This document shows, piece after piece, positions 29,483-59,441 of a DNA stretch of 64,000 bases. The stretch is from Candidatus Saganbacteria bacterium (GTDB taxonomy: Bacteria; Margulisbacteria; WOR-1; JAPLLA01), in contig JAPLLA010000019.1 of NCBI GenBank assembly GCA_026387795.1, forward strand, positions 2,972 to 66,971, written 5' to 3'. Both the position numbers and the translations under genes were made by a program. The notes below the pieces were generated by a model. The model was not told where the DNA came from. It worked only from the letters and a program-made list of their open reading frames with translations, and searched no databases. Position 1 is the stretch's first letter, and every line of letters starts with the position of its first letter.

Positions 29483-29510
29483 AGTCCTTTCCCCATCTTT
29501 TTCTACAAAT

Positions 29511-29900: not shown

Positions 29901-29923
29901 AAAATCAGGGAGAACTCCGCTTT

Positions 29924-32674: not shown

Positions 32675-32730
32675 AGCAACTTCCTCTCCTCATATATATA
32701 TCGACGAAAATGGCGGTAAAATTCAGTTTT

Positions 32731-33934
32731 TTAGAGGTAATTTCGCGGGTCCGCGATCTTTCCTTCGATTACAGAGGCAGCTACAGTGGCAGGAGATGCG
32801 AGGTATATAAACGCATTCGGATTTCCCATTCTACCTTTAAAGTTGCGGTTTGCAGTAGAAATAGCATTTTCTCCGTCAGCAGGTACTCCTTGATGAGTGC
32901 CGACACATGGGCCACATCCAGGCGCAACCACTACGGCATTTGCTTCCACAAAAGTTTCGATCAAACCTTCTTTTAAAGCATCCTTAAAAATCTGCCTGGA
33001 AGCAGGAGCCACTATCAATCTGGTTTCTTTGTTTACTTTTTTACCCTTTAGAATTCCTGCAGCAATCCGTAAGTCTTCCATTCTTCCGTTAGTGCAAGTT
33101 CCAATAAATCCTTCTGCACGGCTTTGCAATTTGCGGTTCGATTTTGGAAACATCAAACTCTTTTACAGAAGCATATTTTGCGTCCGCATCAGGCGATTGA
33201 GGGCTCATTTTTTTCTTAGAATGTTTTTTAACCCAATCTAAGATTTTCTCGTCTGCTTCCATAAGCCCAACCTTTGCCCCTGCTTCTATAGCCATGTTTG
33301 AAATAGTAAAACGCGCTTCAACCGATAGATCGGAAATTACCGGTCCACCAAACTCAATAGCCTGATAAGTTGCTCCGTCTGCGGTAATTTTACCGATGGT
33401 GTATAGGATGAGGTCTTTTGAAAAGACTCCCTTGGGAAGCTTGCCTGTGTAGATAATTTTCATGGTTTCCGGTACTTTGAACCAGAGTTTTCCGGAGATA
33501 ATTCCTGCAGTAAGGTCAGTGGACCCTACGCCGGTTGAAAAAACATTGATGGCACCGTAGGTGCAAGTGTGTGAATCTGCCCCGATTACTAAATCACCGG
33601 GAACAACGTGTCCTTGTTCAGGAACTAACTGATGGCAAACCCCGCAGCCTACGTCATAGAGTACAACTCCTGTTTCTGCCACAAAACTACGGATCTTTTG
33701 GTGGATGGCAGAAACCCCGATGTTTGGGCTGGGAGCACTGTGGTCAATACAGATCGCTACCTTGGATGCATCAAAAGGTTTTTGGCCGTGCATTTTGCGA
33801 AAAGAATCAATTGCAACTCCAGAGGTCCCGTCTTGGCCCATTAAAAAATCTAGGCTGGCAATAACGATGTCCCCGGCATAAGCATCTGTGCCACTATGAT
33901 TTGATAATATTTTTTCGGAGATTGTCTTCCCCAT
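32731..33934 (-). pseudogene. leuC: 3-isopropylmalate dehydratase large subunit, disrupted (two overlapping ORFs)
   Basis: N-terminal ORF 33089-33934 ends ...[18 protein letters not shown]; the C-terminal ORF in another frame continues [11 protein letters not shown]...APGCGPCVG; ~15-20 residues expected between AKP and IGSCTNG are missing. Confidence 0.6.
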
Positions 33935-33936
33935 GA

Positions 33937-34869
33937 TTATTTCCGTTTAGCCCATTGGGTCTTTTCTTTTTGCTGGAGGGTTTTTTCAACTTCTTTGGCT
34001 TTGTTGATAAGGTAGGGGTCGAGCGCTTCGCTCTCCATGACTTCCTGGTAAAGCTTTATGGCTTTAGGGTTTTTCAGCATTTCTGCCAAGTTTAATTTGC
34101 TCCGGTTAACCAGGTCGCTGTATCCGCTTTTTGAAGCAATAATTTCTTTACAAAGCTTTTGTGCTTTTTCAAAATCCTCTTTTTTTGCTCTCCGTATATA
34201 GAGTTCCGAAAGTATTACCTTGCTCTTAATGTAAAAGTAATCGTCCGTACGTTCTTTGAGGATTTTTAATGCGTCTTGGCACGATTTTATTCCGTCGTTT
34301 AACTTGCCGGGCTTGTGGTAAAGAATTAATTCCCCTATTCCCAGGAATGCCCTGGCTCTAAAATACCAGTGCGCTTTTTTGTTTTTTGCCAGTTTTTCAA
34401 AAAGCTTAAGAGCTAAATTGTGGTCGTTTGTGGCATCGCGAGTCATCCGAAGGTCCGCTTCTACTATCACGGCTTTGGCTGCAAAGAAGTTTGCCAGGTC
34501 TTTGCCCAAATGCTTGGATGCGCTATCGCACAGAGCAATCGCATCTGCTATCTCCGCACCCTTGCCGGAAGGGACATAGAGTTCAGCTAAGCCGATTTTG
34601 GCGCGTGCGGTTAAATGTGCGGAGCCGCTGGTTTCAATGATGTTTTGGTAAAGACGCTGTGCCTGCTTATAGTCTCCGCCTTCGCCGCGGCCCACCAAGA
34701 GGTCTGCCATGCCAAACATGATTTCCCGAATGTCCGAACGGTTGGGATATTGGGCAAGGATAAACTTATAGCGCTTGATCGCTTTTTCGATTTTTTCTTT
34801 TTCGGAAGGGGCAGGGAAGCCCAACTCCTGTTGTACTATAAAAGCCATAACCGGCGAAAGAATTCCCAT
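33937..34869 (-). CDS. TPR repeat protein
   Basis: 310 aa; repeated A..Y.....Y-type helical repeats. Confidence 0.6.
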   Translation of the reverse strand: MGILSPVMAFIVQQELGFPAPSEKEKIEKAIKRYKFILAQYPNRSDIREIMFGMADLLVGRGEGGDYKQAQRLYQNIIETSGSAHLTARAKIGLAELYVPSGKGAEIADAIALCDSASKHLGKDLANFFAAKAVIVEADLRMTRDATNDHNLALKLFEKLAKNKKAHWYFRARAFLGIGELILYHKPGKLNDGIKSCQDALKILKERTDDYFYIKSKVILSELYIRRAKKEDFEKAQKLCKEIIASKSGYSDLVNRSKLNLAEMLKNPKAIKLYQEVMESEALDPYLINKAKEVEKTLQQKEKTQWAKRK

Positions 34870-34927
34870 GCTAAAACTCCTTTTGGCAATTGATAATTTA
34901 TTTTATATGATGTAAAATGTTAAGTCA

Positions 34928-35712
34928 ATGATATCGGAAGAACGACTAGCGCAACTTAAAGAGCTGGAAGACAAGATCAGCCTCTCTTTTTTGAATAAAG
35001 GCCTTCTTAACCGATCCGTTACTCATAGTTCTTACGCAAATGAATGGGCGATGCCGTGCTAAAACTTATCATGAGCGAATACCTCTTCAATAAATTTCCC
35101 GCTAAACAGGAAGGGGATCTTACCAAAATCCGGTCCGCAACTGTATCCGATGTAACATTGGCAAATATCGGAAGGCAATTGGGCCTTGGTGACTACCTGC
35201 TTTTGGGGAGCAACGAAGCGCGTACAGGCGGCAGGCGCAGGAGAAGTAACATTGCCAATGCTTTTGAGTCTATTCTGGGGGCCATTTACCTGGATTCCGG
35301 AATCGGTAAAGCGCGCGATTTTGTAATCTCCGCAATCAGCGAAGAAGTGGAAAAAGTGAGCACCGAAGGATTTATCCGCGACTACAAGAGCGCTTTGCAG
35401 GAAATTTCTCAAAAAGAAAAATGGGGGCTACCTCTTTACCGTGTAGTAAAAGAGAGCGGCCCAAAGCACAAAAGGGTTTTTTGGGTGCAGGTAAAAGTAA
35501 AAAACCGGGTGCTGGGACTGGGCAGGGGCGGGAGCAAAAAAGATGCGGAACAAAGAGCAGCTTCTTTTGCTTACGAAAAAATTAAAAAAGAAAAGAAACT
35601 TCCGGAAGAAGAAAAAGCCGGAGGGATTAAAGAACTTTTAGGCACGGTCCGCAAAGGGATCCGTTTCCGTTTAAGGAAGGAGCACAGTGACGATGACGCG
35701 TCTGCTGGTTAA
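34928..35712 (+). pseudogene. rnc: ribonuclease III, disrupted at the catalytic signature
   Basis: ATG at 34928 encodes MISEERLAQLKELEDKISLSFLNKGLLNRSVTHSSYANEW then a stop; the downstream frame resumes at GDAVLKLIMSEYLF... with an intact dsRBD-containing C-terminus; the expected NERLEFL segment between HSSYANE and GDAVL is absent. Confidence 0.6.
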
Positions 35713-36982
35713 AAAAGGCCGCATTATAGATCCTTCTTCAAAACTGGACGCAGTAAAAGACCTCTTAATTGAAAACGGTAAGATCATAAAAATTGCAGAC
35801 AAAATTACCTCCTCCGGCGCAGAAACTATTGACGCTGCCAATGCTTGGGTTTTGCCCGGATTGGTTGATATGCACTGCCACTTAAGAGATCCCGGAAATC
35901 CGGAAGAAGAAACCATTGCATCCGGGACCCGCTCTGCAGCTTTGGGCGGTTACACCTCAATTGCCTGCATGGCCAACACAGAACCGCCGCTGGATAACCG
36001 GGCGCAGATTCAATATGCAATCTCAAAAGCGCAAAAAGAAGGACTCATCAACGTTTTTCCAATTGGGGCAGTGAGCAAAGGGCTTAAAGGAGAAGAATTG
36101 GCAGAGATCGGTTTTATGCTGGAAGAAGGGGCAAAAGGATTTTCGGATGACGGCAAGCCGATTATGAATGCGGAACTAATGAGAATGGCTCTCCAGTATC
36201 TGTCGCAATTTGATCTTCCGGTAATTTCCCATTGTGAAGACAGCATGCTTTCTTCCGGCGGAGAAATGAACGAAGGTGCGCTTTCTACGGAGCTGGGCTT
36301 AAAAGGGATCCCAAAACTGGCGGAAGAGATTATGGTGGAAAGGGATCTAAGACTTGCGGAAAAATTCGGCAGAGTACACATTGCACATGTTTCAACTTCC
36401 GGTTCTGTGGACCTGGTCCGTCAGGCAAAGAAAAGGGGAGTCAAAGTCACGGCAGAAACCGCGCCGCACTACTTTTCTCTTACAGAAGAAGCGGTACGCG
36501 GATACAATACCAATGCAAAAGTAAATCCTCCCTTGCGTACCGCAAAAGACGTTAAGGCAATTATCAAAGGGCTGGGAGACGGGACCATTGATGCAATTGC
36601 CACAGACCATGCGCCCCATGTCATAGAAGAAAAGAATGTAGAGTTTGGTTTGGCCTCAAATGGGATGGTTGGGTTTGAAACCGCACTTGCACTGGTGATT
36701 ACTTTTCTTGTAAACACCAAAGCGCTTACTCCTTTGCAAGCAGTCCCAAAATTAACCATTATGCCTGCGAACATCCTTAAGATAAACAAAGGGACGCTCA
36801 AGGTTGGTTCAGATGCGGATGTGACAATTGTGGATCCAAAAAAAGAGTGGACCGTAGATGCCTCGAAATTTTCCTCACGCTCCAAGAACTCTCCCTTTGA
36901 CGGAATGAAACTCCAAGGCAAAGTGATGCATACGATTGTGGGTGGACGGATAGTAGTCAAAGATTCGCAGCTGGTGAAGTGA
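35693..36982 (+). CDS. pyrC: dihydroorotase
   Basis: ~430 aa; ...GLVDMHCHLRDPG metal-binding motif; the ORF track starts two codons earlier. Confidence 0.85.
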   Translation: MTRLLVKKGRIIDPSSKLDAVKDLLIENGKIIKIADKITSSGAETIDAANAWVLPGLVDMHCHLRDPGNPEEETIASGTRSAALGGYTSIACMANTEPPLDNRAQIQYAISKAQKEGLINVFPIGAVSKGLKGEELAEIGFMLEEGAKGFSDDGKPIMNAELMRMALQYLSQFDLPVISHCEDSMLSSGGEMNEGALSTELGLKGIPKLAEEIMVERDLRLAEKFGRVHIAHVSTSGSVDLVRQAKKRGVKVTAETAPHYFSLTEEAVRGYNTNAKVNPPLRTAKDVKAIIKGLGDGTIDAIATDHAPHVIEEKNVEFGLASNGMVGFETALALVITFLVNTKALTPLQAVPKLTIMPANILKINKGTLKVGSDADVTIVDPKKEWTVDASKFSSRSKNSPFDGMKLQGKVMHTIVGGRIVVKDSQLVK

Positions 36983-37017
36983 CGCGTCTTACCTTGAAAA
37001 CCATTAAAATTTTCCTT

Positions 37018-37110
37018 AGAGCTGGAAACCTGCGACTAAACGTCGCGGTTTCCAGATATTTCAGAGGGATTTTTTTTGGAAACCGAGGCGTTCAGCCTCA
37101 GGTTTCCAAC
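37018..37110. repeat. REP-like double-hairpin element, copy A
   Basis: GGAAACCTGCGACTAAACGTCGCGGTTTCC at 37024-37053 and GGAAACCGAGGCGTTCAGCCTCAGGTTTCC at 37078-37107; the same pair recurs at 46082-46178. Confidence 0.65.
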
Positions 37111-37198
37111 TTATTTGCTGTATTTAGTTTCGTGCTTTTTGTCATTTGTTATTTGTCATTTGTCATTTCCTTGGGTGGCTGCAGCTACACAGGAGCCA

Positions 37199-37959
37199 TG
37201 ACCGAGATCCGCATTTCCCCTTTTTCCGAGACAGTAGGTGCAGGACTAACTGCACAGTTTTATGCCACAGGTTATGATTCCGGAGGACGCCCAATTACCA
37301 TTAGCCCAACTTGGAGCGTGTGGGGAGGAGTTGGGACAGTGGATGCAACCGGAAAGTTTTATGCAGGGGCATCAACAGGGATAGGATATGTTATTGCTAC
37401 TGCTTCGGGCATTTCCGGGCAAGCACAAGTTACAGTTACAGACAAAGGATCCATTTCCGGGAAAGTGCGCAATGTTTTAACGGAACTTCTAAGCGGAATT
37501 ACAGTGAGGATCGTAACCGACCATTCTAAATCCGCTCAAACAAACTCATCCGGTAGTTACATCCTTTCCGATTTGCTCCCTGCTACTTATCAAGTAGAAA
37601 CAGTAGGGACTACCCGTTATGGTTCTTCTTCCGGAGAAGCTACGGTATACACCGGTCAAGGGAGCACTTTGAATTTTACGCTAAGTGAGAGAATAGGGAT
37701 CCAAACAGATTCTATTAATAGGACCGGTACAACAATGAACATCAACGGGACAGTCAGGAATAACGGGAGCACTTCCGCTACCGGTTGTACGGTGTTTTAC
37801 TTCTTTTATAATGCGGAAGATTTTCCCATGGGGAGCGGATCTTCTTCTCTTGGCACTATTGCTGCCGGGTCTACAGAAGCGTTTATAATGGTTGTAAATT
37901 TATCGGAAGATGCAGATCCCAGCAGGACGGTGAAATATGGCATTGCCGGCGGATTCTAA
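37199..37959 (+). CDS. hypothetical protein with Big_2-like Ig domain and carboxypeptidase-regulatory-like domain; start uncertain
   Basis: ATG at 37199 (MTEIRISPF...); the ORF track extends upstream to a GTG at 36979 across the REP element; an alternative start would give a lipobox LGGC. Confidence 0.45.
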
Positions 37960-38281
37960 TCCAGAAAAAGAAGCACAAAGGATAGTGGCGGAGTACTTAT
38001 CTGGGCTAGGGTGGGCCAGGCAGTGGCAGCAAGTGATAGAAAGAGAACCGCGGTCTTTTGGAAGGGACGAAAGAGAAGACAAGCTGCGCAAAGCAGAAAA
38101 GATGATGGAAGAAACCGAAGACCGCTTTAGCCAGCATGTGGAAAAATACCTCCACGATTCTTCGCCGGAAGCCAAACAAGTGTTGGAAAACATTCTAAAA
38201 AAACTTTCGCCTCGCCGCGACTTGGGGTTTTTCTGCCAGAGGATTTTGAGCCACATTAAAAACAAGCTGGGGATTTATTAG
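37937..38281 (+). CDS. hypothetical charged small protein
   Basis: 114-aa ORF; overlaps the 3' end of the 37199 gene; no motifs. Confidence 0.3.
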   Translation: MALPADSNPEKEAQRIVAEYLSGLGWARQWQQVIEREPRSFGRDEREDKLRKAEKMMEETEDRFSQHVEKYLHDSSPEAKQVLENILKKLSPRRDLGFFCQRILSHIKNKLGIY

Positions 38282-41200
38282 GCTTGGCTTTGTACTTCCC
38301 TTTGTAATTCAGACAGATTAAACGATAAATGCGGACGCCAGATAAAATTAAATCTTTCTACTGCTACGAAATAGCTTATCTCTTTATCTCCAATCTTGCC
38401 GGTAAACCTGCGATAGGTATCGGACATAGACTTAAAATTATAGATATGGGTATTGCGGTCAAATAATTCCGGATGGTCTGCTGCAGTCCAGCCAGAAGCA
38501 ACGCTTTCTACGGCGGAGCCAAGATACCTGGCATTGGGGTTTGCATCATCGTATTGGCGATTGGGATCTGCCAGATGAGTCATTGTGCCGCTGTCAAAAG
38601 GATCAAACATTACCCATTCGTGTGCACCGGATAGCATGCCTGGAAAGTGAGCGGATTTTTCAGCAAAACCCATGTAAACAGCGCTTCTGATCCCTGCTTC
38701 CTGGTAAGCCATTTGCAGTACCGGTGAACGATGCCTGCAACATCCGCCTTTTTTCATGAAAAAAGCCTGAGTTAAAAATTGCCCAGTTTGGCCTTTTTCC
38801 CTGGATTGCTTATCTGAATATGAAATGTGGAGCTGCTCGAAAATGTTTTTGGCTAAGCCGACTACGTGGTCAGGGGCATTTAATAATCCCGCGGCAAGGC
38901 GGGAGATTGCTTCTTTTTTTGCGGCTATCACAAATTCAAAAACAACAGAAGGATCTCCTGCGCTGTCTTTTTCCCCTTTGTTTATCCCTGCAACTTCACC
39001 GTGTTCCAGGGGTTTTCCCAATTCTGCATTGAGTAGCGCAGGAGAACAGTCATGTTGGCGCAGGAATGGGTTGTCAGCCACTTCCCCATATTTGTCCGGA
39101 GTGATTTCTGCTGCAAGCGTTATTTTGTGCCCATTTGGAAACAAAGCTGCCTCGATTTTTGTTCTGGTTAACATGGTTCTGCGCACTGCCTGGTCAAATT
39201 GTTTTTCTGCTTGAGGGGTAAGCCCGCCGACTTTTGCTTTCCAACCAAGGAGTCCTCCGGTTTTAGTTTTTGGCAGAGAAGCATATAAATCAGCCAATAC
39301 CTGATTTTCCGCGCGGATGCATGCAAGCGGGTCCCTAAGGTAAAGTTCTACATAAGTGTAAAAATCACTTGCAGTGGCAACGCGCATTACTCCGCCGGAA
39401 GCTTTGGGCATGGCCAGGCCACTGACCTCATCCGGTGTAAACTTTCCAAAAAGCTCCCCCAGTAAAACTGCTTTTACACTTTTTACCGGACGGGGCGCAA
39501 GAGCTGCTGCTTGTGCAACTACTCCCAGCAGGCCGTGTAACTTGCCCAGATATTCTTTTTTGTAGTTAGCTACTCTGGCAATACCCTTCCCACTGGTTAC
39601 ATATGTTTTTATCATTTCTCTCATTTTTAGCAAGGTATCTGGTTCTTTTGTAAGCAGGCCAATGAACTCCGTAAGATTTTCTGCAGTTAAAGAGACCGCA
39701 GCCAAAGTTGGGTGAGAGAAAGAAACTTTCCCGCCGGGTCTGTTGACTTTATGCGGGAAGAGAGAGCTAAACGCAGTGTTAAATGCTTCGGGATCACTAT
39801 GCCACTGCAGGTATCCAAGAATAATCCGTCTTAAAACTTCATTTTCAGGTGTATTTAATGCTGCCACAATTTGGGTTTGGGCAGCAGCAACTTTTGCTTC
39901 TATGGCAGCCCCGATTTTGGCGATGGCTGCTGTGCGGTGTTCAATTTTTTCTCGAATTTGTGCATTTGCCGGATCTGCCTGGGCTGCTGTTTCCCAAAGT
40001 GCACAATACTGCCGTAAGGCGGATAAAGCGGTAAAAAGATTTTCCAGGGAGTGCATTCTTGCCAGTTCTGCGCCGCTGGTTGAGATTGCTATGCCTTGAT
40101 TAAAAATAGCCCTAACTACATCCTTTTTGTCTCCTTGCTGTGCTTGCAAATCCGCTTCTGCTTCTTGGGCTGTTTTAAGAGCGCTTTTTTGCGGCGGCGT
40201 AGGAGGTTCCGGGACAGAAACTCTGGTGTGTTTATAAGCAAAAACAGAGACATTGTCCCCATGTGCACCACCGTTTGCTCTCATTGTTTCTACAGAGGCC
40301 TGGTAAATGTTTGCAGCTAAGTCAACTAAAGAAGATGTGGGGTCCAGCAGCTCAACAAAAGAAGCAAACTTTTCTTCTCCGGGCTTTTTTGAGGCAGCGT
40401 TAAAAGGAAGGTTGTCCCGCGGACCGTCAGTCATTCCCAAGACAATATCCCCTTCTTCCAATTCGCAGGTAAAAACATGCGGAGTACTGTTGGTTTGGCC
40501 CAAGGCTCTCAAAATTATGTGATTATTAGGAAACCCCCTAAAAATTTCATGATATTCTCTTAGCTCTTCTCCGCCTATGGGTTGGGTAGGGTAATCTCCT
40601 TTATCCATTTTATATCCTTCAACGGCTAAGTTGTCGTCGAACGACACTTGATGCAAGGTCCCGTTTTGTTTAAGGACATAAACAGGGGCGTCACCTATGT
40701 TAACTACAGTTAAAGTATTTCCGCGGACCTCGTAAGCAGCAACAGTACTTCCCATTCCTTTTAAGGTTTGTTTTTCCGGCCTTCCGTCTAAAGCTGCAGC
40801 AGCAAGATCTTTTTCTACTTCTTCCAATATTTTTGCTTGAGCCAGTGCAATACATTCTTGCAAAGTTTTACCTTCGCCAAGAGCTTTGGAAAAAACCTCT
40901 GCTGCTATGCGGCTGGCAACTTCTCCCCCTGCGTGTCCTCCCATGCCGTCAAAACAAACAAAAACCTTCCTTTGGGCATCTTCATAATACAAAATAGCAT
41001 CTTCGTTTTTTGCCCTTGCTCCAATGCTGGTGAGGCCGTGTATGTTTTTCCCTGGGAAAGTGATGACCCCTTCTGCTCCGCCCGCGTAAAATTTTACAGT
41101 TTGTACTGGTGCTGCTTCTTTCTGTGCAATGACTCGGTCCAAGTTTTCCAGTGCTTTGGTTTTGGCGCCCGCTATGTCTACCATAGACTGTAAAAGTGCG

Positions 41201-44184
41201 GCGTCTTCCGGAGAGGTAAAAATCCGTCTTCCTTTTTCTAATGCTTTGGTCCAAATTCCAAGTTCTTTGTCAACTAGAGAGCGGGTGATCCTTAATTGGT
41301 CCAATGTTTCCTTGTTTAAAGCCTCTAAATTTCCGCTTCCAGCAGCAGCAATGCTTACAGCTGCAGCTGTATTCATCCCTACGGTTCCACCTGGTCCTGT
41401 AACCAGGTAAATGGGATCTATTTGTTCCAGAGCTTCTTTATGTAAGCGGCGGGCCAGGGCTTTTTTGGTTAGGCTTAAAGCAGTTCTGGCATGTGCTACT
41501 TCTGCTTCAAAAGGTTTTTCATGTGGGAACCTAGCATTCGCTCTTTCCCAAATAGGAACACTTCTGGCAAAACCATCCAAGACCCCTTCCAAGGCAGCCA
41601 CATCCCAGCCAGTAGCCAAAGCAGCAACCCGGTCTGTTTCCGATGCATGCTGTCTAATGATATTTCTTATATGTCCGTCAATTTGGCGATGATGGGTAGT
41701 GGACCAGGCACGTTCTTGATCTCCTTCTGCGCTTGTTCTGGCAGCGGCAACATCATCTTTTCTTAATTTAATCGCTTGATTAAGGGCCTCCAAACCTTCC
41801 CGTTTTCTTTTTGCCAGTTCCCCAAAAGGGTGGTCTGGGGAAAAAGCAGCATCCGCACCCTGCCATAGCCGCAATGCTTCTCCCATGCGATGGCTGGTTT
41901 CTTCTAGGATTGCTAAACTGGTATCATTGGTTGTTCTGGGGCCGTTTTCCATGCGGTCTCTGATCCGGGTCCAAGCAACACCTGCGTCGGTATTTGGAAA
42001 AAGATCTGCTTCGGCTTTTTCGGTTTTTCTTTTTGCATTAGCAAATACAGCTTCCTTTTCTTCTATAGCAGTCCCTAATATTATTCGAGCGGTTTTAAGG
42101 TTTTCGGTTTTTTTGGAAGCTTCACTGCTTTCCGGGAATTCACTGCTAAGCGGTTCCCAAACCACCAAGATATCCCCTAAAATTTTCTGAGTAGCCTGAA
42201 GCAGTGCTAAAGAAGTGTGGTCCAAGAATTCAGGCTGTTCCAGTGCCACTCCATAGGTGTCTTCTACTTCCTCGGGAGCATAACCAGTTGCCATTTTCAA
42301 TATATCATTTTCTGCTTTCCTGGCCAGGCTCATTTGCCTTTCCATGTGTACAACTGCAACTCGTTGTTCCAGGATCCTTAGTTCAGCCAACTGTGCGTTG
42401 ATGGGGATAGTTAAGTCCGGCTTTTCAATAGACAATCTTTCCCAAAACGCAATTCTGCTCCTTAGCCAAGAGAGGGTTTGAGCTACTGTTCTGTAACCTT
42501 GTTCTTCCTCGATCCCGGCTGCCCTAAAAGAAGGCGGGAGGGGAGCAGTATTAGCAGGATCCCTTTTCCATTCCAAATAAGTCTTTATATCTGCATGCCT
42601 GGCCAGAAATTCCGTTTCTTGTGCCTTGTGGAATGCAACCGGGTCATTGGTCCTCCCGATTTTTAAGTCAATTATTTTTTGAAGTTCTACAAGGGCCCTG
42701 GCATAACCCTCAATTTTATCTTGTGCAAAGGCTGGGTCGTTTAAACTGGTTCTGGCAGTTTCCCATGCAGCTTTTAGTGTTTGGGCTTTTTCATAAACTG
42801 CTTGGAGTTCGGGAAGAGAATAGGCTGCTAATTCATCGGGATTTTCCCTTGCGCTGGTCATTACAGTGCTAAAATGCACTGGCGGTTCTGCCCCCAATAA
42901 TTCCCCGATAGTTCTACTTTCTTCCGCTACTAATTTGGCAAAGGTCAAAACTTTTTTATCACTCTTAGCTGTTGCCAAGGCGTGTTGTAAAACAGTCATG
43001 CGAAGGGAACTTTTAGGATGATTAACTTCTGCGGCAAAGCTTTGCCAGCTTGCAATGTGCTCTCCCAGAAAAGTTAAAACTGATTCTATAGCAGCCAAGC
43101 TATCTTCGACTGCTGCCAGGTCCCTAAAACTTTCCGGTAAATCACGTGTTGCTCCGGGTTGCGTTCTTGCGGCCAAATATTCCTGGGCTTTGCCAGAAAG
43201 AGCTGCAATTACTTGGGCTTCTTCTCTAAGCTTTGCTTCATGTAAGCTTTGTTTTAGTTCCCCAATTACGCGTCCAAGGGTTTCCAAGTCCGCGGTGTAT
43301 TGAGCGTGAAGCTCTGTCCCGTCTTCCAAAAGAGGGAGTAGTTCTTCGCGGACCAATCGTTCTGCTTCAACCAAGGTTTTTAGGTCTGCCAAAGTGGTAC
43401 CTGCATACTGCCTGGAAACAACCATAATTGCAGCAGGGGAGATGCCCAGCAGGTCTTGTGTAGCAGTCCCCAAAGTTTCTCTTAAAGCATCAATCCTTGC
43501 TCCTTCTTCTTGCACTTCCCTTCCCAGACGCGCGGAAGATTCTCTTAACTGCCGTGCTTGTTCTTCTAACCCCGGAAGATTTGCTTCTCTTTCTGCTTCT
43601 ACCAGTGCTCTACGCATGTCTTCTACTGGTCCCATAAGTACAGCTTTGAAAGCTGCCAAGGAATCCCTGCATCCTTTCAAAGCAGCAGTTAGGTCTCCTG
43701 CTTGTTCTTCTCCTTCTCTTTTTGCTCCTTCTAACTCATCCTTACCTGCTTCTTCAAGACCAGGAGTTGTAAGCGCGCCTAAAACAACAGCAAGCGCATT
43801 ATTTATACCGCTTAAGGCAGCATTTAACTCAGTAATTTGAGCACTTAAATCTTTTGCTTCTGCATTGGCGTCAAATTCTTGCAATACCCCTGATTCTGCA
43901 TTGGCAATGGCGCTTCTCTGAGCTGCCAGTTCCCCGCTTTTTTCTTCTATTGTTCTTGCTGTTTCTTTCAAAGAAGCGGTGGCTTGATCTGCCAAGGGGC
44001 GTTTTTGTTCCAATGAACCTGTGAGGGTATCGATTTCTTCCCGCGCAGAGATTACCTTAAGCCAAGCAGCTTGAAAAGCAGAGACCTCTGCTGGTAATGT
44101 GGGTCTTATTGTAGGTTTTTGATGAGAACGAAACAGAACGAGATCGCCTGTTCTTATTAGTCCTCTTACACCGGGACTCTGCAT
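38278..44184 (-). CDS. giant multidomain protein (1968 aa): shared N-terminal paralog module, PP2C-type phosphatase domain, C-terminal transglutaminase-like Cys-His-Asp domain
   Basis: the first ~600 aa are collinear with the 585-aa and 723-aa neighbours; FVCFDGMGGHAGGE, NIGDAPVYV and LGMTDGPRDN are PP2C motifs (DNA ~40190-40950); C-terminal GGCCRHRS...GAHEWVMFDPFD fits a transglutaminase-like Cys/His/Asp core (DNA ~38480-38760). Confidence 0.7.
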   Translation of the reverse strand: MQSPGVRGLIRTGDLVLFRSHQKPTIRPTLPAEVSAFQAAWLKVISAREEIDTLTGSLEQKRPLADQATASLKETARTIEEKSGELAAQRSAIANAESGVLQEFDANAEAKDLSAQITELNAALSGINNALAVVLGALTTPGLEEAGKDELEGAKREGEEQAGDLTAALKGCRDSLAAFKAVLMGPVEDMRRALVEAEREANLPGLEEQARQLRESSARLGREVQEEGARIDALRETLGTATQDLLGISPAAIMVVSRQYAGTTLADLKTLVEAERLVREELLPLLEDGTELHAQYTADLETLGRVIGELKQSLHEAKLREEAQVIAALSGKAQEYLAARTQPGATRDLPESFRDLAAVEDSLAAIESVLTFLGEHIASWQSFAAEVNHPKSSLRMTVLQHALATAKSDKKVLTFAKLVAEESRTIGELLGAEPPVHFSTVMTSARENPDELAAYSLPELQAVYEKAQTLKAAWETARTSLNDPAFAQDKIEGYARALVELQKIIDLKIGRTNDPVAFHKAQETEFLARHADIKTYLEWKRDPANTAPLPPSFRAAGIEEEQGYRTVAQTLSWLRSRIAFWERLSIEKPDLTIPINAQLAELRILEQRVAVVHMERQMSLARKAENDILKMATGYAPEEVEDTYGVALEQPEFLDHTSLALLQATQKILGDILVVWEPLSSEFPESSEASKKTENLKTARIILGTAIEEKEAVFANAKRKTEKAEADLFPNTDAGVAWTRIRDRMENGPRTTNDTSLAILEETSHRMGEALRLWQGADAAFSPDHPFGELAKRKREGLEALNQAIKLRKDDVAAARTSAEGDQERAWSTTHHRQIDGHIRNIIRQHASETDRVAALATGWDVAALEGVLDGFARSVPIWERANARFPHEKPFEAEVAHARTALSLTKKALARRLHKEALEQIDPIYLVTGPGGTVGMNTAAAVSIAAAGSGNLEALNKETLDQLRITRSLVDKELGIWTKALEKGRRIFTSPEDAALLQSMVDIAGAKTKALENLDRVIAQKEAAPVQTVKFYAGGAEGVITFPGKNIHGLTSIGARAKNEDAILYYEDAQRKVFVCFDGMGGHAGGEVASRIAAEVFSKALGEGKTLQECIALAQAKILEEVEKDLAAAALDGRPEKQTLKGMGSTVAAYEVRGNTLTVVNIGDAPVYVLKQNGTLHQVSFDDNLAVEGYKMDKGDYPTQPIGGEELREYHEIFRGFPNNHIILRALGQTNSTPHVFTCELEEGDIVLGMTDGPRDNLPFNAASKKPGEEKFASFVELLDPTSSLVDLAANIYQASVETMRANGGAHGDNVSVFAYKHTRVSVPEPPTPPQKSALKTAQEAEADLQAQQGDKKDVVRAIFNQGIAISTSGAELARMHSLENLFTALSALRQYCALWETAAQADPANAQIREKIEHRTAAIAKIGAAIEAKVAAAQTQIVAALNTPENEVLRRIILGYLQWHSDPEAFNTAFSSLFPHKVNRPGGKVSFSHPTLAAVSLTAENLTEFIGLLTKEPDTLLKMREMIKTYVTSGKGIARVANYKKEYLGKLHGLLGVVAQAAALAPRPVKSVKAVLLGELFGKFTPDEVSGLAMPKASGGVMRVATASDFYTYVELYLRDPLACIRAENQVLADLYASLPKTKTGGLLGWKAKVGGLTPQAEKQFDQAVRRTMLTRTKIEAALFPNGHKITLAAEITPDKYGEVADNPFLRQHDCSPALLNAELGKPLEHGEVAGINKGEKDSAGDPSVVFEFVIAAKKEAISRLAAGLLNAPDHVVGLAKNIFEQLHISYSDKQSREKGQTGQFLTQAFFMKKGGCCRHRSPVLQMAYQEAGIRSAVYMGFAEKSAHFPGMLSGAHEWVMFDPFDSGTMTHLADPNRQYDDANPNARYLGSAVESVASGWTAADHPELFDRNTHIYNFKSMSDTYRRFTGKIGDKEISYFVAVERFNFIWRPHLSFNLSELQREVQSQA

Positions 44185-44278
44185 TTAAATAACCTTCCTT
44201 TTTCTGTCCTATATATATATCGTAATATTTAGGCAAAAATTGCATTTTTTGACCGATTTTTTAGGGGCAAACGGATGC

Positions 44279-46036
44279 TTAAGCTTGCTGTTTCGCGGTT
44301 GTTTCCAAGGCCCTTAATTCTGTTAAATGCGAATTAATTTTATCGGCTAATCCAGGATTTTCCCAAAGCAAACCTTCCCAAAAAGCGATCCGTTCTTTTA
44401 ACCAAGGGAGCGCTTCTGCTGCTGCTTCTCTTTTTGATTGCTTAGCCACAGAATAAGCAGGGGAGGGTATATAAGAAACCCAATCTTTTGCCAAATTTAA
44501 ATAAGCTTCCATAACCGGGTGGCGGGCCAAATCTTCTGCTTCTTGTGCTTTGTGGAAAGCAACTAGGTCACCAGTTTTTCCGCTTTTTAAATCAATTGCT
44601 TTTTGGAGTTCGGAAAGCGCCTTGGTGTAGCCTTTGATTTCTTCTTTACCAAACTCTGGATCGCCAATCCTGGCTCGCATTTTTTCCCACTCGCCAAGGA
44701 AAGCTTGAACTTTTTCGCAAGCTATTTGGAGTTCAGCAAGGGGGAGCTTTACCAGCCATTCCGGGTTTTTCTTGGCAAAAAACAGAAGGTCGGATAAGCC
44801 GGTGCGAAATTCAGGACACTCAGGATTCAAAAAAGAGAGCCCCTTGCTAGCTGTACCCTCTAGGTCTTTTACTGAGAAAAAGGCGCGTCGTGTTAGATCT
44901 TCTTTTTTGCTTGCTAGCTCCTTTTTTAGACACTCTAAATGAAAGGAGCTCATATCATAGCCTGTCTCTTGGCAAAAAACCTGCCAGATTGCAATCTGCT
45001 TTCCCAAAAAAACTATCTTCTGTTCACATTCTTCCACGGGGTCGTCTATTTTAGGAAGGGCTTTTTTTGCAAGTTCTTCTTCGTCCCACCTTGCTTCATG
45101 TAGTTGCCTCTTTAGGTCTGCCAATGCTATGGCAGCCGGGTCCCTGCCATAAAACATCGATTCCGCTAAAAGAGGACCAATCTCTTCGCGCAGCAATCGG
45201 CTTGCTTCGCGCAAAGTTTTTAGGTCTTCCAAAGCACTTCCTTTATACTCTCCCAATACAACCATAGCTGCAGCAGGGGAGAAGCCTGAAACCTCTTGCA
45301 TAACCAGCGGCAACTCTTTTCTTAATACCGCAAGCCTTTCTTCTGCTTCCCGCACTTCTCTTTCAATGCGAGCATGATATTCTATTGAATCTCGTTCATG
45401 TAGCCACAATCTACGAGCAGGGGAAGTTGCGTCTGCGATTGCCAGTGCTGTGCGCATTTCTTCTACGGGTTTCATAAGTATGGCTTTGAAATTTGCTAAG
45501 GAATCCCTGCATCCTGTTAAAACAGCAGTTAGTTCTCCTGCTTGTTCTTCTCCTTCTCTTTGAACCCCTTCTAACTCATCTCTATCTTTTGCTTCAAGAC
45601 CAGGAGCTTTGAGCGCGTCTAAAACAACAGCAATTGCACCCTTTATGCCTTCTAAGACAGCATTTAAATCAGTAATTTGAGTGCTTAATTCTTGGACCTC
45701 TGGAGTTGCGTCAAATTCTTTTAACGTAGCAGCTTCTGCAAGGGCAATAGCGCTTCTTTGGGATTCAAGCGCGCGGTTGCTTTCATCTACAGCTATGGCA
45801 GTTCTGCCTATTTCCGTAGTAGGCCACCCTTCCAAGAAAGAGCGGCTATGTTCCAAGAATGCTTCCCTGTCCTTTATTTCTGTGCGTGCGGAAAGCAGTC
45901 TAAGCCAAGCAGCTTGGAAGGGGGTAACAGTTTCCGGCAAAAAAGTTTTTATAACAGCTTTTGTAATAGCAGTAGGGCGGTATATGGTAATATCGCTTAC
46001 TCTTCTCGGCCCGCTAGCCACATCTGCACACAGCAT
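44279..46036 (-). CDS. paralog (585 aa) of the N-terminal module of the giant protein
   Basis: conserved segments TPFQAAWLR, SQRSAIALAEA..KEFDATPEVQELSTQITDLNA, LEGVQREGEEQAGELTAVLTGCRDSLANFKAILMKPVEEM, DLVAFHKAQEAE, RIAFWE. Confidence 0.65.
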   Translation of the reverse strand: MLCADVASGPRRVSDITIYRPTAITKAVIKTFLPETVTPFQAAWLRLLSARTEIKDREAFLEHSRSFLEGWPTTEIGRTAIAVDESNRALESQRSAIALAEAATLKEFDATPEVQELSTQITDLNAVLEGIKGAIAVVLDALKAPGLEAKDRDELEGVQREGEEQAGELTAVLTGCRDSLANFKAILMKPVEEMRTALAIADATSPARRLWLHERDSIEYHARIEREVREAEERLAVLRKELPLVMQEVSGFSPAAAMVVLGEYKGSALEDLKTLREASRLLREEIGPLLAESMFYGRDPAAIALADLKRQLHEARWDEEELAKKALPKIDDPVEECEQKIVFLGKQIAIWQVFCQETGYDMSSFHLECLKKELASKKEDLTRRAFFSVKDLEGTASKGLSFLNPECPEFRTGLSDLLFFAKKNPEWLVKLPLAELQIACEKVQAFLGEWEKMRARIGDPEFGKEEIKGYTKALSELQKAIDLKSGKTGDLVAFHKAQEAEDLARHPVMEAYLNLAKDWVSYIPSPAYSVAKQSKREAAAEALPWLKERIAFWEGLLWENPGLADKINSHLTELRALETTAKQQA

Positions 46037-46081
46037 TTAAAAAACCTTCCTTTTAGAGACCTCCGAAAAATTAGCTTTCTG

Positions 46082-46178
46082 AGAGCTGGAAACCTGCGGC
46101 TGAACGCCGCGGTTTCCAGATTTATCTCTAGAGCAACTCATTTTGGAAACCGAGACGTTTAGTCTCAGGTTTCCAAAA
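46082..46178. repeat. REP-like double-hairpin element, copy B
   Basis: GGAAACCTGCGGCTGAACGCCGCGGTTTCC at 46088-46117 and GGAAACCGAGACGTTTAGTCTCAGGTTTCC at 46145-46174; between two paralogous genes. Confidence 0.65.
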
Positions 46179-46209
46179 TCGAATTATTCGGAGCTCTCCT
46201 TTTGTTTTT

Positions 46210-48381
46210 TTATGCTCTTGTTTTTGAAATTGCAGTAGTTAAATTTCTAAATGCGGCTTGTAATTGGTCAATTAAAGCATCAAAAGGCCGGTCCGGATAA
46301 CACTTTTGGTTTGCATTTGGCCAGAGGATGTTTAGGCGCGTAGAAAGAATCTCTCTGGCAAGGACCAGCATAGCTTTTTTGTATTTGCCCAGAGTTTCAG
46401 GAGAGGTTTCTGCTGCAGCGCTAATTTCCCGGAGAAGATCCTCATAATGCTGACTCTCATAAAGAACGTCTTCTTCTGACAATGCCGCATCTCTTGCTAT
46501 TTTAATGTTTTTTTCCCTTGAAGAAATAACTGCGCCAATAGTTCTCATAGCAGTTCCTCTTTTTTCAATCTTTTGGGCAATAATAGTATTTTGGGGATAT
46601 TTGAAGCGAAGGGCTAGCCATAAGCCTGTGCCAAGCTGCAGCATAGAGCGCACAGAGAGCATAGAGTGAAGCTGTGATCCCCGAAATGTTTCAGGACGGC
46701 CAGCTTGAGCCCTGTGGTACATGCCTGTGGTTTTCCCGGGGCAGAAAATGTCTTCATTTGCCTGGTCCATAATTTCTTTTTCCCTGATAATAACAGCAGC
46801 GATTTCTAGTTTTTCTTTAGCCTCTCTTAAAGCAGTTAAGCGGCTGTTGATTTTGGCAATATCTGGGTGAGAGGGATGGGCTGCTACTACTCTTTCGTAT
46901 TCCGGAATACAGGATTCTGTAACTTGCAATCCGCTGTTTATCAGGGTTACCCATGGATCCTGGTATAAATAACTATAATTGCGAGGCAAAGGGCCCTCTG
47001 ACGAGTGATAAGGGGCATCCGAATCTTCTAAATATGCATTATATCCCTGTCCCTGGTTTTGCATAACAGTTTCCAAGTGAGGGACTGCTTCCAGCAGTTC
47101 TTCTTCTGCACAGAGCGCAAATGCTACGGGGTCATCCACTGCTTTGCTTTTTATTGCTATCATCATGTCTAACTTCTCCAAAACAATTTTATAAGTACTG
47201 GTCTTGATCCCTGCAAGGCAAGGAGAATCGATGGCTTTCTCAAAAGCTTTCCATTTATGGAGTAGAGCAGTGATTGTTTCATGGGCGGAATGGAGAAATG
47301 GGAGGGAAAATCTTCCAAACCCGGGATGTTCCGGGTAATGTTCAATACTGCACAAAAACCCAAAATCTTCTTTAACTTTTGGCAGTGCAGCATTTAAAAT
47401 GCCTTCTTCTTCTCTCAATTTTTGGTCGATAAGGGATTGGAATAAATCACGGATTTTACCGCGCAATAAACTTAGGTCCTCACCGTATTGGGTAGAAAGA
47501 ACTGTTCCCAACACTAAAAGAGGGAGAAGCTTGTTCTCAATCAATAGCACTGTTTCTCTTAAGGTTGTAAGGTCCTCGATGGTTTCTGCTGGGTATGTCC
47601 TGTTTAATATCGCAGCAGAAGCAGGGGAGAGAGCAGTTAGATCTCTATTTACTGCAGCTTCTTCTTCTCTTAGCTCTGCCAGCGTTGCCTCATCTGCCCG
47701 GATTTCTGTTGTTCGGTCAGCTTGTTGTCTCTCAATGGTAGCCTTGGTTTCTCTAAGACCGCGTTCCCTTTCTACTAAAGCCGGCTTTTCTGCTTCAATA
47801 GTCTGGCGCAATGTTTCTACCGGTCTCATTAGTACGGTTTTGAAAGCTGCCAAGGTATCCCTGCAGCCTGTCAAAGCAGCGCTTAGCTCTCCTGCTTGTT
47901 CTTCCCCTTCTATTTTTGCCGCTTCTAGCTCGTTTCTATCTGCTGCTTCAAGACCAGGAGTTGTAAGCGCGCCTAAAACAACTGCAGCTGCATCGCGGAT
48001 ACCGTCTAAGGCAGCAGTTAATTCAGCGATTTGAGAGCTTAACTCTTTTACTTCGGAAGTAGCACTAAATTCCTGCGAAGCAGCAGCTTCTGCTTGTGCA
48101 AGATCTTTGGTTTGTTTTTCCAATGCTGCGGTTGTTTCCGTAATTGCGGTTTCGATTTTGGGGAGCAGGACTGCAGCATGCTTGGAAAGGCCAGTTTTTA
48201 CTACTAACATCTTTTCCCGTGCAGAGATTTCTTCTCTTATAAATATTTTCCTGAGCCAGAGGGTCTGGAAAGGGGTTTGGGTTTGGGGCAGGGGAGTGCG
48301 GACCCTTGCTGCTCCCGGAAGCACAAAAGTTCTTATGCTTACTCTTCTTGCAGTTGCTCCATCTACACTGGGTCCGGACAT
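46210..48381 (-). CDS. paralog (723 aa) of the N-terminal module of the giant protein
   Basis: TPFQTLWLR, ...ELSSQIAELTAALDGIRDAAAVVLGALTTPGLEAADRNELEAAKIEGEEQAGELSAALTGCRDTLAAFKTVLMRPVE..., DDPVAFALCAEEE. Confidence 0.65.
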   Translation of the reverse strand: MSGPSVDGATARRVSIRTFVLPGAARVRTPLPQTQTPFQTLWLRKIFIREEISAREKMLVVKTGLSKHAAVLLPKIETAITETTAALEKQTKDLAQAEAAASQEFSATSEVKELSSQIAELTAALDGIRDAAAVVLGALTTPGLEAADRNELEAAKIEGEEQAGELSAALTGCRDTLAAFKTVLMRPVETLRQTIEAEKPALVERERGLRETKATIERQQADRTTEIRADEATLAELREEEAAVNRDLTALSPASAAILNRTYPAETIEDLTTLRETVLLIENKLLPLLVLGTVLSTQYGEDLSLLRGKIRDLFQSLIDQKLREEEGILNAALPKVKEDFGFLCSIEHYPEHPGFGRFSLPFLHSAHETITALLHKWKAFEKAIDSPCLAGIKTSTYKIVLEKLDMMIAIKSKAVDDPVAFALCAEEELLEAVPHLETVMQNQGQGYNAYLEDSDAPYHSSEGPLPRNYSYLYQDPWVTLINSGLQVTESCIPEYERVVAAHPSHPDIAKINSRLTALREAKEKLEIAAVIIREKEIMDQANEDIFCPGKTTGMYHRAQAGRPETFRGSQLHSMLSVRSMLQLGTGLWLALRFKYPQNTIIAQKIEKRGTAMRTIGAVISSREKNIKIARDAALSEEDVLYESQHYEDLLREISAAAETSPETLGKYKKAMLVLAREILSTRLNILWPNANQKCYPDRPFDALIDQLQAAFRNLTTAISKTRA

Positions 48382-48465
48382 ATGAAAGGCTCCTTTTTTA
48401 TATTGTCGTGCGGATTTAGAGGAAATTTCGTTTCCAGCGGTTTTTTTTTAGCGGATTAAAATTAT

Positions 48466-58004: not shown

Positions 58005-58063
58005 GAATAAGGTTTCGATAAGTAGGGCATAGGGTGAGGTGTGAGGTGGGGGTGGAGGCGGAA

Positions 58064-58792
58064 TTATGTTTTCACAATCCGCATCTTGCCTCTAACCCCG
58101 AGCTGATCATCTTTTATAATGAGAGCTCCCTTGAGTCCTCTGATTCTTGTTGCCAGCTCCAATCCCTTTTCAATATCTTGAACGGTTTTTACTAAATTCC
58201 CGATTGCGGTAGCTGCTGCGTCTGCAAGCGCAGTAGATTTTGCGATTGTAACCACTGCGTCTGCTTTTCCAAAGCTTAAAGAGTGGCCAACAGTTCCTGC
58301 GGAAGTACAAACTCCAAGCGGCATGTCGGAAGGATCGATCTCTATGGCGATTTTATGGGTAAAAGGGGAATGGACTCCTGCAAATACGCCGATCCGCCTG
58401 GTTACCTCGCTCCGCATAAAAATGTCCCCGCCGTTTTCTACAATGATTTCCTGAGAATATTTCAAAAGGCCTCTTCCCACAAATTCCGCAACCGCACCTG
58501 CTACTGCTGCCATGGGGCCAACCTTTGCTGCTTCTCCTGCTTTAGCCATTTCTTTTACAATCTTGGGAGAAAAAAACGAAACCTTAACCGGCGCTAAACT
58601 GCTTTGGAAAATAGGATTTTGTGCAATGTAGGTTTCAAGCTCAAGCCGGTATTTTTTCACCAGTTCCAAGGCTTGGTCTTTTAAATTCCGGTTTGCCAGG
58701 ATCAAAAGGTCAGTCTCTTTTTCAATTACAGTGAAAGAGATCAAATCTTGACTGGAGAGTTGTTGGCGGTAAGTTCTTGGTTCGAAAATCAT
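58064..58792 (-). CDS. hypothetical protein (UPF0280/ApbE-like)
   Basis: 242-aa ORF; weak family resemblance only. Confidence 0.4.
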   Translation of the reverse strand: MIFEPRTYRQQLSSQDLISFTVIEKETDLLILANRNLKDQALELVKKYRLELETYIAQNPIFQSSLAPVKVSFFSPKIVKEMAKAGEAAKVGPMAAVAGAVAEFVGRGLLKYSQEIIVENGGDIFMRSEVTRRIGVFAGVHSPFTHKIAIEIDPSDMPLGVCTSAGTVGHSLSFGKADAVVTIAKSTALADAAATAIGNLVKTVQDIEKGLELATRIRGLKGALIIKDDQLGVRGKMRIVKT

Positions 58793-58808
58793 TTGAATCC
58801 TCTTTTAT

Positions 58809-58838
58809 GGAAACCGAGGCGTTTAGACTCAGGTTTCC
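58809..58838. repeat. REP-like single hairpin, copy C
   Basis: GGAAACCGAGGCGTTTAGACTCAGGTTTCC, identical in type to the second hairpin of copies A and B; between the hisB stop and the next gene start. Confidence 0.55.
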
Positions 58839-58841
58839 AAC

Positions 58842-59441
58842 TCATAGGATTCCCTTTGTCGAGGGTACCCCTCTTTTTCTGGGGTTAATCTGGCACGCTT
58901 TTCTTAGTGCTACTGCAAAAGCCTTGAAGATTGCTTCAATGATGTGGTGGGTATTTTCCCCGCGGATCAGATTAATATGTATATTAATGCCTGCATTGAG
59001 CACCAATGCTTCAAAAAACTCTTTTACTGTTTCAGCGTCAAATTCAGAAAAAGGCTTATATGGCAATTGTACGGCATACGTAAGATGAGGCCTGCCTGAT
59101 ACATCAATTACCACTTCTGCCAAAGCTTCGTCCATTGGCACTTTATTTTCCGCATAACGTTCAATCCCTTTTTTGTCTCCTAGAGCAACTCGGAAAGCTT
59201 GGCCCAGCACAATGCCCACGTCTTCTACTGTGTGGTGCATATCTATATGTATATCGCCTTTGCAGGAAAGTTTGAGGTCAAATAGCCCGTGTTTGGAAAA
59301 TAGCTCAAGCATGTGGTCAAAAAACCCGATCCCGGTTTTGATCTTGCTTTTCCCTGTACCATCGACGACTAAGTCGAGCTTGATGTCTGTTTCGCTGGTT
59401 TTTCTTTTAAGTGATGCTTTGCGTTTTTTCATGGTCTCCAT
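58842..59441 (-). CDS. hisB: imidazoleglycerol-phosphate dehydratase
   Basis: 199 aa; ...HIDMHHTVEDVGIVLGQAF... and ...INIHINLIRGENTHHIIEA typical of IGPD. Confidence 0.9.
   Translation of the reverse strand: METMKKRKASLKRKTSETDIKLDLVVDGTGKSKIKTGIGFFDHMLELFSKHGLFDLKLSCKGDIHIDMHHTVEDVGIVLGQAFRVALGDKKGIERYAENKVPMDEALAEVVIDVSGRPHLTYAVQLPYKPFSEFDAETVKEFFEALVLNAGINIHINLIRGENTHHIIEAIFKAFAVALRKACQINPRKRGVPSTKGIL

Follow-up and report, generated by a model that had tools for sequence, protein, structure and literature searches.

A 64-kb piece of a 67.7-kb contig from a metagenome-assembled genome (MAG) of Candidatus Saganbacteria, to which exact look-ups of the encoded proteins assign it, is called the window in the following. 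It contains five copies of a 30-nt hairpin, arranged as two doublets (A and B) and a singleton (C), and, at 55350-55925 on the plus strand, a gene for a single-tyrosine (Y1) HUH transposase of the type called REP-associated tyrosine transposase (RAYT) or TnpAREP, REP being the repetitive extragenic palindrome. A sequence-only reading of this DNA had taken the hairpins for REP-like elements mobilised in trans by this RAYT. Reports on systems of that kind, in which REPs or their inverted doublets (REPINs) go with a RAYT, have to our knowledge come mainly from Proteobacteria, Cyanobacteria and Bacteroidetes, the protein being in every case a class-2 'RAYT'. The phylum concerned here, Margulisiibacteriota, is an uncultured sister phylum of Cyanobacteria, and our literature searches returned nothing relevant on REP or palindromic repeats in Margulisbacteria or Saganbacteria. 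Our analysis leads us to regard it as likely that the hairpins are a REP-like family extending over the Margulisiibacteriota, that their cognate gene is a small tnpA of the IS200 class found in this lineage, and that the RAYT of the window is a separate system. Of the earlier proposal, the REP-like or REPIN-like nature of the hairpins and their tie to the Y1/HUH family are thus retained, and the partner is replaced.

Each hairpin consists of a 7-bp outer stem, one bulged T, a 5-bp inner stem and a 5-nt YRAAC loop. The formula is GGAAACC-T-GMGRC-YRAAC-GYCKC-GGTTTCC in orientation 1 and, as the reverse complement of it, GGAAACC-GMGRC-GTTYA-GYCKC-A-GGTTTCC in orientation 2. Doublet A (37018-37113) is made of hairpin A1 at 37024-37053, which lies on the plus strand in orientation 1, or left-end type, with the sequence GGAAACC-T-GCGAC-TAAAC-GTCGC-GGTTTCC, and of hairpin A2 at 37078-37107, which lies on the minus strand and hence reads as orientation 2, or right-end type, on the plus strand, with the inner stem GAGGC/GCCTC; the spacer is 24 nt. 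In doublet B (46082-46180, spacer 27 nt), B1 at 46088-46117 (plus strand, orientation 1) has the inner stem GCGGC/GCCGC and B2 at 46145-46174 (minus strand, orientation 2 on the plus strand) has GAGAC/GTCTC, and the stem of B2 is lengthened by ATTTT/AAAAT (46140-46179). Within A as within B, the second hairpin has the reverse-complemented form, which makes each doublet an inverted pair, as in a REPIN. Copy C (58795-58852, core 58809-58838, minus strand) is a lone unit of orientation 2, with one G·A mismatch in the inner stem and the core enclosed by an outer 7-bp palindrome GAATCCT…AGGATTC. All five hairpins had been described correctly by the sequence-only reading, as two-hairpin copies A and B and a one-hairpin copy C. 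Between the two doublets the inner stems differ by compensatory changes, GCGAC/GTCGC against GCGGC/GCCGC for A1 and B1, and GAGGC/GCCTC against GAGAC/GTCTC for A2 and B2.

The hairpins are far from what chance would give. The pattern GGAAACC-N16-GGTTTCC has 5 matches in the window against 0.33 expected, and none of 100 shuffles reaches 5. A covariance model made from family members and run with filters off recovers the five hairpins only, at 55-62 bits (62.4 for A1, 57.6 for A2, 59.9 for B1, 59.1 for B2 and 54.9 for C); the next-best match in the window has 12 bits with E = 0.28, and no weaker copies were found by this model, an 11-bit match at 48415-48441 being rejected as noise. Folded as single-stranded DNA, each hairpin reaches about -15 kcal/mol, and the z-scores over the three sites range from -5.6 to -9.7.

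Beyond the window, the family was searched by an exact degenerate pattern in both orientations, with one genome per species. There were 67 matching loci, nearly all of them in Margulisiibacteriota/Saganbacteria/WOR-1 MAGs from groundwater, sediment, marine and other sources, and in the related assembly JAQUOB01 alone the strict pattern is present on 11 contigs, with 12 loci; viral contigs gave 0 matches to the exact pattern. When members were collected by the 5' half and the loop alone, the 3' half was perfectly complementary in 104 of the 113, and these 104 include five inner-stem types and 13 outer-stem variants, among them GGAAGCC/GGCTTCC (10 copies), GGACACC/GGTGTCC, GGGAACC/GGTTCCC and GGTAACC/GGTTACC. 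In an alignment of 40 sequences, both partners have changed in 10 of 16 pairs. Covariation scores 0.329, whereas shuffles give 0.116 and none of 500 attains the observed value, and the pairing is destroyed when the partner columns are slid. The covariation and the compensatory pairing together indicate that the stem-loop is under structural constraint. Regarding arrangement, singletons make up 55 of the 78 hairpin sites, and in 20 of the 23 doublets the orientation-1 hairpin comes first and the orientation-2 hairpin follows after a spacer of 1-30 nt. As the sites hold nothing but singletons and doublets with spacers of this length, an interpretation as CRISPR-like or tandem arrays was rejected. 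At the hairpin foot no tetranucleotide was found to be conserved, neither a GT[AG]G nor a CGTC tag; position -1 tends weakly towards T and position +1 towards A.

Small tnpA genes bounded by the hairpins

A profile of relatives of the window RAYT was searched against all open reading frames (ORFs) of the hairpin loci, and its weaker matches are small Y1 ORFs bounded by family hairpins, in the loci L003, L010, L011 and L039. Nine further loci came from a metagenome scan with an alignment of the small tnpA, and three from encoding-contig look-ups of family members. In 16 of 16 loci, all from related genomes, the hairpins directly flank the small tnpA. The layout of the unit is the same at every locus with flanking sequence, namely an orientation-1 hairpin 10-60 nt upstream of the ATG and an orientation-2 hairpin overlapping the 3' end of the ORF, and additional copies often stand on either side of the gene. 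Divergent tnpA genes have correspondingly divergent hairpins: a GATATT loop is found in L080-L082, and the hairpin beside the gene of L087 reads GGAACC-GCGAA-TTTA-TTCGC-A-GGTTCC. What is more, the doublets of the window and the left end of the unit in L076 have in common a GAGCT immediately before GGAAACC and an AGAT immediately after GGTTTCC. By this common motif and by the order of orientation 1 then 2, the window doublets look like the tnpA unit minus its gene.

The encoded protein has a Y1/HUH core of about 130 aa with the motifs DHVH and Y-x3-Q, the latter in place of the Y-x3-NP of RAYTs. It scores 66-73 bits on the NCBIfam model transpos_IS200 (NF033573), above the cutoff of 55, and 46-52 bits on the RAYT model REP_Tyr_transpos (NF047646), below the cutoff of 80. 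Among solved structures, the TnpA proteins of ISDra2, Sulfolobus and IS608 come nearest, and the search against the PDB gave no match to 4ER8, the TnpAREP of E. coli. In the NCBI annotation the gene is an ordinary IS200/IS605 transposase.

The small tnpA also shows a marked constancy of place. It immediately precedes one and the same methyltransferase gene, of the SpoU/TrmH type, in L003, L011, L075, L081, L082 and L091, a remnant of it occupies this position in L053, and in L089 it is found two genes away, inside the same SpoU-PheS-PheT-MutS block, so that at least 7 genomes have the gene beside SpoU/TrmH or within this block. The divergence of tnpA roughly parallels that of its neighbour, with identities of 81/77/51/50% for tnpA versus 81/68/60/61% for TrmH. 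In addition, each of the 37 clusters of small-TnpA proteins is represented on 1-3 contigs, with every named cluster from Margulisiibacteriota, and one small-tnpA locus was found in a complete genome of 1.67 Mb. Multiple near-identical copies per genome, as expected of an active insertion sequence, were not seen in the clusters, in the loci or in this complete genome. The gene therefore appears to be single-copy, syntenic and vertically inherited, and the synteny, the 1-3 contigs per cluster and the one locus in a complete genome suggest that, for all its IS200-type sequence, it lives in the manner of a RAYT.

Copies inside genes and possible selection by the host

In the related genomes, 28 of the 78 hairpin sites (about 36%) lie deep inside long ORFs and in frame with them. 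Pfam domains flank these hairpins on both sides, which indicates that the interrupted genes are intact housekeeping genes. Doublets are found at the same site of gltB in two species (L038 3711-3771 and L048 4597-4657) and at the same site of mutS in three others (L007 3368-3435, L091 15046-15113, and also L089). Other intragenic copies, with ileS, valS, leuS and metH among the genes concerned, are at L033 5336-5407, L027 3768-3797, L019 1956-1985 and L049 5476-5505, and a radical-SAM enzyme gene has an in-frame hairpin as well. According to orientation and frame, the hairpins are predicted to encode peptides such as GNRDVQSQVS, GNLRLNVAVS, WKPATKRRGFQ and ETATFSRRFP, and loop variants that would give stop codons are avoided in the intragenic copies. 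The insertions, of about 10 residues per hairpin and at least about 20 per doublet, mostly fall into interdomain linkers.

Such copies make it necessary to weigh whether the hairpins are now mainly DNA or RNA structures selected by the host, as transcript-end stabilisers, translation or folding pause sites or protein-binding sites, the link with a transposase being historical. The in-frame doublets of mutS and gltB speak for this. The three species with the mutS doublet, whose MutS N-terminal regions share about 68% protein identity, have it at one and the same codon position, and the pairing stays perfect through compensatory changes, the inner stems being GCGAA/TTCGC, GCGGC/GCCGC and GCGAG/CTCGC and the outer stems beginning with GGAAGCC, GGAAACC and GGGAACC. 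The gltB doublets likewise stay perfectly paired by compensatory changes. Orthologous intragenic hairpins have 78-85% nucleotide identity, against 62-64% for the flanking codons. The conservation of the core over the whole phylum points in the same direction, as does the observation that the flanks beyond the 30-nt core are complementary over at least 3 bp in 31 of 107 copies versus 4.1 expected; the extending sequence varies from copy to copy, and it may reflect either insertion into pre-existing palindromes or selection for longer stems.

Nevertheless, several results speak against this view. The strand of single copies relative to transcription is unbiased, 14 vs 13 in intergenic tandem contexts and 9 vs 12 inside genes, and since bulge and loop differ between the strands, this lack of bias argues for an element acting at the DNA level rather than an RNA motif. 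The hairpins have no T-run after them on either strand and were not called by terminator scans, so the identity of intrinsic terminators was rejected, and Rfam gave nothing over them at gathering thresholds or at E <= 1. Moreover, orthologue pairs with an empty or decayed hairpin site were found for LeuRS, MetH and a LarC-like gene, and this shows that copies are both gained and lost. Taken as the principal account, selection by the host seems to us rather unlikely, and it is compatible with the family being served by the small tnpA.

The RAYT gene and the surroundings of the hairpin sites

The gene at 55350-55925 is a genuine Y1 gene of the REP-associated type, and the earlier recognition of an IS200/IS605-type HuH transposase with the motif HIHLL is confirmed by the Pfam domain Y1_Tnp (E = 4e-8). 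The protein passes REP_Tyr_transpos with 83.9 bits and fails the IS200 model, and its sole match in the PDB is 4ER8, a weak one; its tyrosine motif, YIRNQW, departs from Y-x3-NP. The exact sequence of this RAYT has no record in the contig index, in which hisB is recorded on short Logan contigs only.

This gene has palindromes of its own. A perfect palindrome with the arms CAAAAAAGCGACAATGA and TCATTGTCGCTTTTTTG, also written AAAAAGCGAC…GTCGCTTTTT, lies upstream at 55248-55281, another with the arms AAAAAGCGAGGATCC and GGATCCTCGCTTTTT lies downstream at 55952-55981, and a third is in frame within the ORF at 55654-55685, with a smaller one at 55642-55654. They are of the type GCGAC/GCGAG…GTCGC/CTCGC (GCGAS…STCGC), with feet of A-runs and T-runs instead of GTAG, and gene and palindromes together (55248-55981) make up a REPtron of their own. 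RAYT homologues with 45-57% identity have a palindrome at the corresponding position of the ORF, which is GGCGAGAATTCGAATTCTCGCC in L069 and L073 and GCGAGGGCACGTGCCCTCGC in L068; in L073 an identical palindrome follows just downstream of the gene, with the 'double-foot' GTAG…CTAC. In the protein alignment nearly all relatives show an 'EG…RL' insertion at the palindrome site, sometimes as several tandem units. Throughout the 750 kb fetched, palindromes of the form GCGAS-N10-STCGC are confined to this clade or adjoin it, apart from one hairpin variant by the small tnpA of L087, and in the 64 kb of the window no dispersed copies of the RAYT palindromes were seen. REPs in frame in the stretch that separates HuH from Y are described as unique to TnpAREP subclass 2.4 (PMC6006769). 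The RAYT of the window is like that subclass in having REPs on both flanks, and the 'double-foot' REP of its L073 homologue agrees with it too; it is unlike that subclass in its Y motif, which is not YIxNNP, and in the feet of its palindromes.

That this RAYT mobilises the GGAAACC hairpins in trans, as the sequence-only reading had it, could be argued from its lying in the same window and from the resemblance between the inner stem GCGAC…GTCGC of many hairpins and the arms of the RAYT palindromes. Against it stand the palindromes on both sides of and inside the RAYT ORF, and the different Y1 gene flanked by the hairpins at every tnpA locus. No GGAAACC hairpin is beside the RAYT, the nearest being 2.9 kb away, and the association with RAYTs elsewhere that the earlier reading anticipated was not found, the hairpin model detecting no family hairpin in about 74 kb in all around four RAYT homologues. 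According to published surveys, every tnpAREP goes with a REP family of its own (PMC6006769), so that a comparison with the known pairing rules likewise turns against a partnership with the GGAAACC hairpins. We therefore hold mobilisation by this RAYT to be very unlikely. Still more improbable is that the doublets are conventional miniature inverted-repeat transposable elements with a DDE transposase and target-site duplications, for although their two hairpins are inverted copies of each other and resemble terminal inverted repeats, no direct repeats flank A or B, single hairpins are frequent and the hairpin-bounded gene encodes a Y1/HUH and not a DDE enzyme.

The start codon of the RAYT had been described as embedded in a hairpin of its own. 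A stem CATATGTG…CACATATG (55322-55353) does cover the ATG, with -16.4 kcal/mol as RNA and z = -3.5. The window has 77 short inverted repeats, of which this stem is one. A role as a regulatory feature conserved in the RAYT clade was rejected, since the stem is absent from the four homologue loci; it may be due to chance or serve a translational occlusion special to this lineage. Between the stem and the upstream palindrome, about 11 G follow one another (55287-55297). In another Margulisiibacteriota MAG, the locus L006 has at 2147-2632 a canonical RAYT (126.7 bits on NF047646), which stands 2.3 kb from a GGAAACC hairpin and is unflanked; with this gene taken into account, Margulisiibacteriota genomes can carry up to three different Y1 genes.

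As for the surroundings, all three hairpin sites of the window are ordinary intergenic spacers. Doublet A follows the stop of an amidohydrolase gene (36982) and precedes a CarboxypepD_reg lipoprotein gene, the probable true start of which is at about 37132; a long ORF spanning the doublet (36979-37959) was rejected as an artefact of open frames. Doublet B separates two minus-strand ORFs, 44279-46036 and 46210-48381, and copy C occupies the 50-nt spacer between hisB and a downstream AbpE-like gene. The position of the hairpins had been linked to an island of giant genes, and this link is not borne out, the sites being ordinary spacers and the GC content at 37-54 kb being 0.44-0.48, like that of the remaining window. 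A Logan contig of the same organism (L085) stops 45 nt beyond hisB, exactly at hairpin C, which indicates that short reads from this organism fail to assemble across the repeat.

Some other features of the window may be recorded here. Two giant ORFs lie on the minus strand, one at 38278-44184 with 1968 aa and a PP2C domain, the other at 48466-54027 with 1853 aa, a strong AT skew (-0.2 to -0.34) and, as its sole match, a spurious IncD of 27 residues. The heptamer TTTGTCA occurs three to four times at 37139-37169, within the part of the lipoprotein gene that encodes the signal peptide (lipobox LGGC), and these repeats could be slippage-prone. Two adjacent NrdD paralogues (anaerobic ribonucleotide reductase) are encoded at 11236-13119 and 13274-15367, and the cumulative GC skew is maximal at about 26000-40000, where gene orientation shifts from mostly plus to mostly minus.

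Proposed mechanism, known systems and significance

Under the explanation which we favour, with the small tnpA as the partner of the hairpins, doublets A and B would be tnpA units without the gene, resembling REPINs or miniature IS200 derivatives, and copy C would be a lone right-end-type hairpin. The single-copy tnpA would recognise the folded single-stranded hairpin, with the polarity given by the bulged T and the loop, and TnpA would cut and rejoin DNA at the hairpin foot, whereby copies would be spread or kept up in trans; such mobilisation in trans is suggested by architecture and linkage. We infer further that the protein is catalytically active and that the hairpins are mobile, and the genome of the window may still carry a small tnpA. 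The copies of the window would be passive residents of intergenic spacers, and its RAYT a second, independent Y1 system with palindromes of its own.

A number of points weigh against this explanation. Neither a small tnpA nor a remnant of it is present in the 64-kb window, and a search by protein accession for the gene of this MAG (proteins MCX5750516-MCX5750561) gave none, as no NCBI-sourced member of the small-tnpA family has an MCX575… accession. We saw neither a transposition event nor an excision footprint, nor any rule for target sites. The hairpin loci came mostly from the strict pattern, which biases the sample to canonical copies. That the pairing of the orthologous mutS and gltB copies has survived long divergence fits repeated conversion, or selection on account of a use to the host, at least as well as plain selfish spread. 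Furthermore, the hairpins flanking tnpA are inverted at every locus, orientation 1 then 2, and not on the same strand, so that the classical IS608-type excision of a whole unit does not obviously apply. Elements of the IS608 type have their left- and right-end hairpins on the same strand. In view of this difference, the unit of mobility here may be the single hairpin, by analogy with what has been proposed for the REPs of E. coli.

Among known systems, the nearest are those of REPINs and RAYTs, or REPtrons, as represented by the BIME of E. coli with its TnpAREP and by the REPINs of Pseudomonas (PMC3116915, PMC6006769, PMC5581495). The present family is like them in its short imperfect palindromes, of which the 64 kb of the window have five at three sites, in its inverted doublets with a short spacer, and in that the same hairpins flank, inverted, a Y1/HUH gene which in the related genomes is apparently single-copy and vertically inherited; two hairpin subtypes, the GCGAM-type and the GAGAC-type, alternate in the way of the Y and Z REPs. 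It is unlike them in that the partner is of the IS200 class, by its motifs and by its scores on both models, in that the hairpin foot lacks the GT[AG]G/CGTC tag, in the high proportion of intragenic sites in the related genomes, and in that the core is conserved over a whole candidate phylum, not within a species or genus. What is known, then, is the REPIN-RAYT architecture; what is new is this architecture on a class-1 TnpA, without a GTAG tag, with a phylum-wide core and with many intragenic copies.

The small tnpA itself may be likened, by description only, to the 'RAYT-like' Group 3 of IS200, which has no duplicates, a low copy number and flanking 16-mers abundant in the genome (Bertels et al. 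2017, PMC5581495), both having an IS200-type sequence without the behaviour of an insertion sequence. Compared again by description, the start of its Y motif, YIKNQK, resembles the signature of TnpAY1 subclass 1.2 (Quentin et al. 2018, PMC6006769). Members of that subclass are without flanking hairpins or REPs and have a Y-x3-Q-x2-HH motif and a C-terminal domain (PMC6006769), unlike the small TnpA, which lacks both the motif and the domain and is flanked by hairpins. With the IS200/IS605 elements in general the unit has in common a minimal Y1 TnpA bounded by subterminal hairpins and an extrahelical T as in the ends of IS608; it differs from them in its inverted end hairpins and in a gene that is single-copy and syntenic instead of multi-copy and near-identical. 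Gene-less miniature derivatives of IS200/IS605, the PATE-type elements, consist of the two ends only. In-frame palindromic repeats inside genes are known from the Rickettsia palindromic elements and from some REP families (PMC3733652). The hairpins of the related genomes are like the Rickettsia elements in lying in frame within probably functional genes, including DNA-repair genes, and they are unlike them in belonging to an unrelated sequence family and phylum and in having an identifiable cognate Y1 gene, while no copy of the window is intragenic.

In practical respects, the hairpin repeat breaks metagenome assemblies of Margulisiibacteriota, and the RAYT of the window would be the wrong gene to clone for testing the GGAAACC hairpins. 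In a wider view, we put forward as a tentative idea, possible rather than probable, that an IS200-class (class 1) Y1 transposase was domesticated in Margulisiibacteriota independently of the classical RAYTs and maintains hairpins throughout the phylum, including the structure-selected in-frame copies in mutS, gltB and aminoacyl-tRNA synthetase genes, which would make this a long-lived vertical partnership with a function at the level of the host, and not merely decaying selfish DNA. Should the tie between the hairpins and an IS200-class protein hold up, it would be of interest for two questions, namely if the domestication of Y1 transposases happened more than once, and whether REP hairpins persist by selection or by transposase-driven maintenance.

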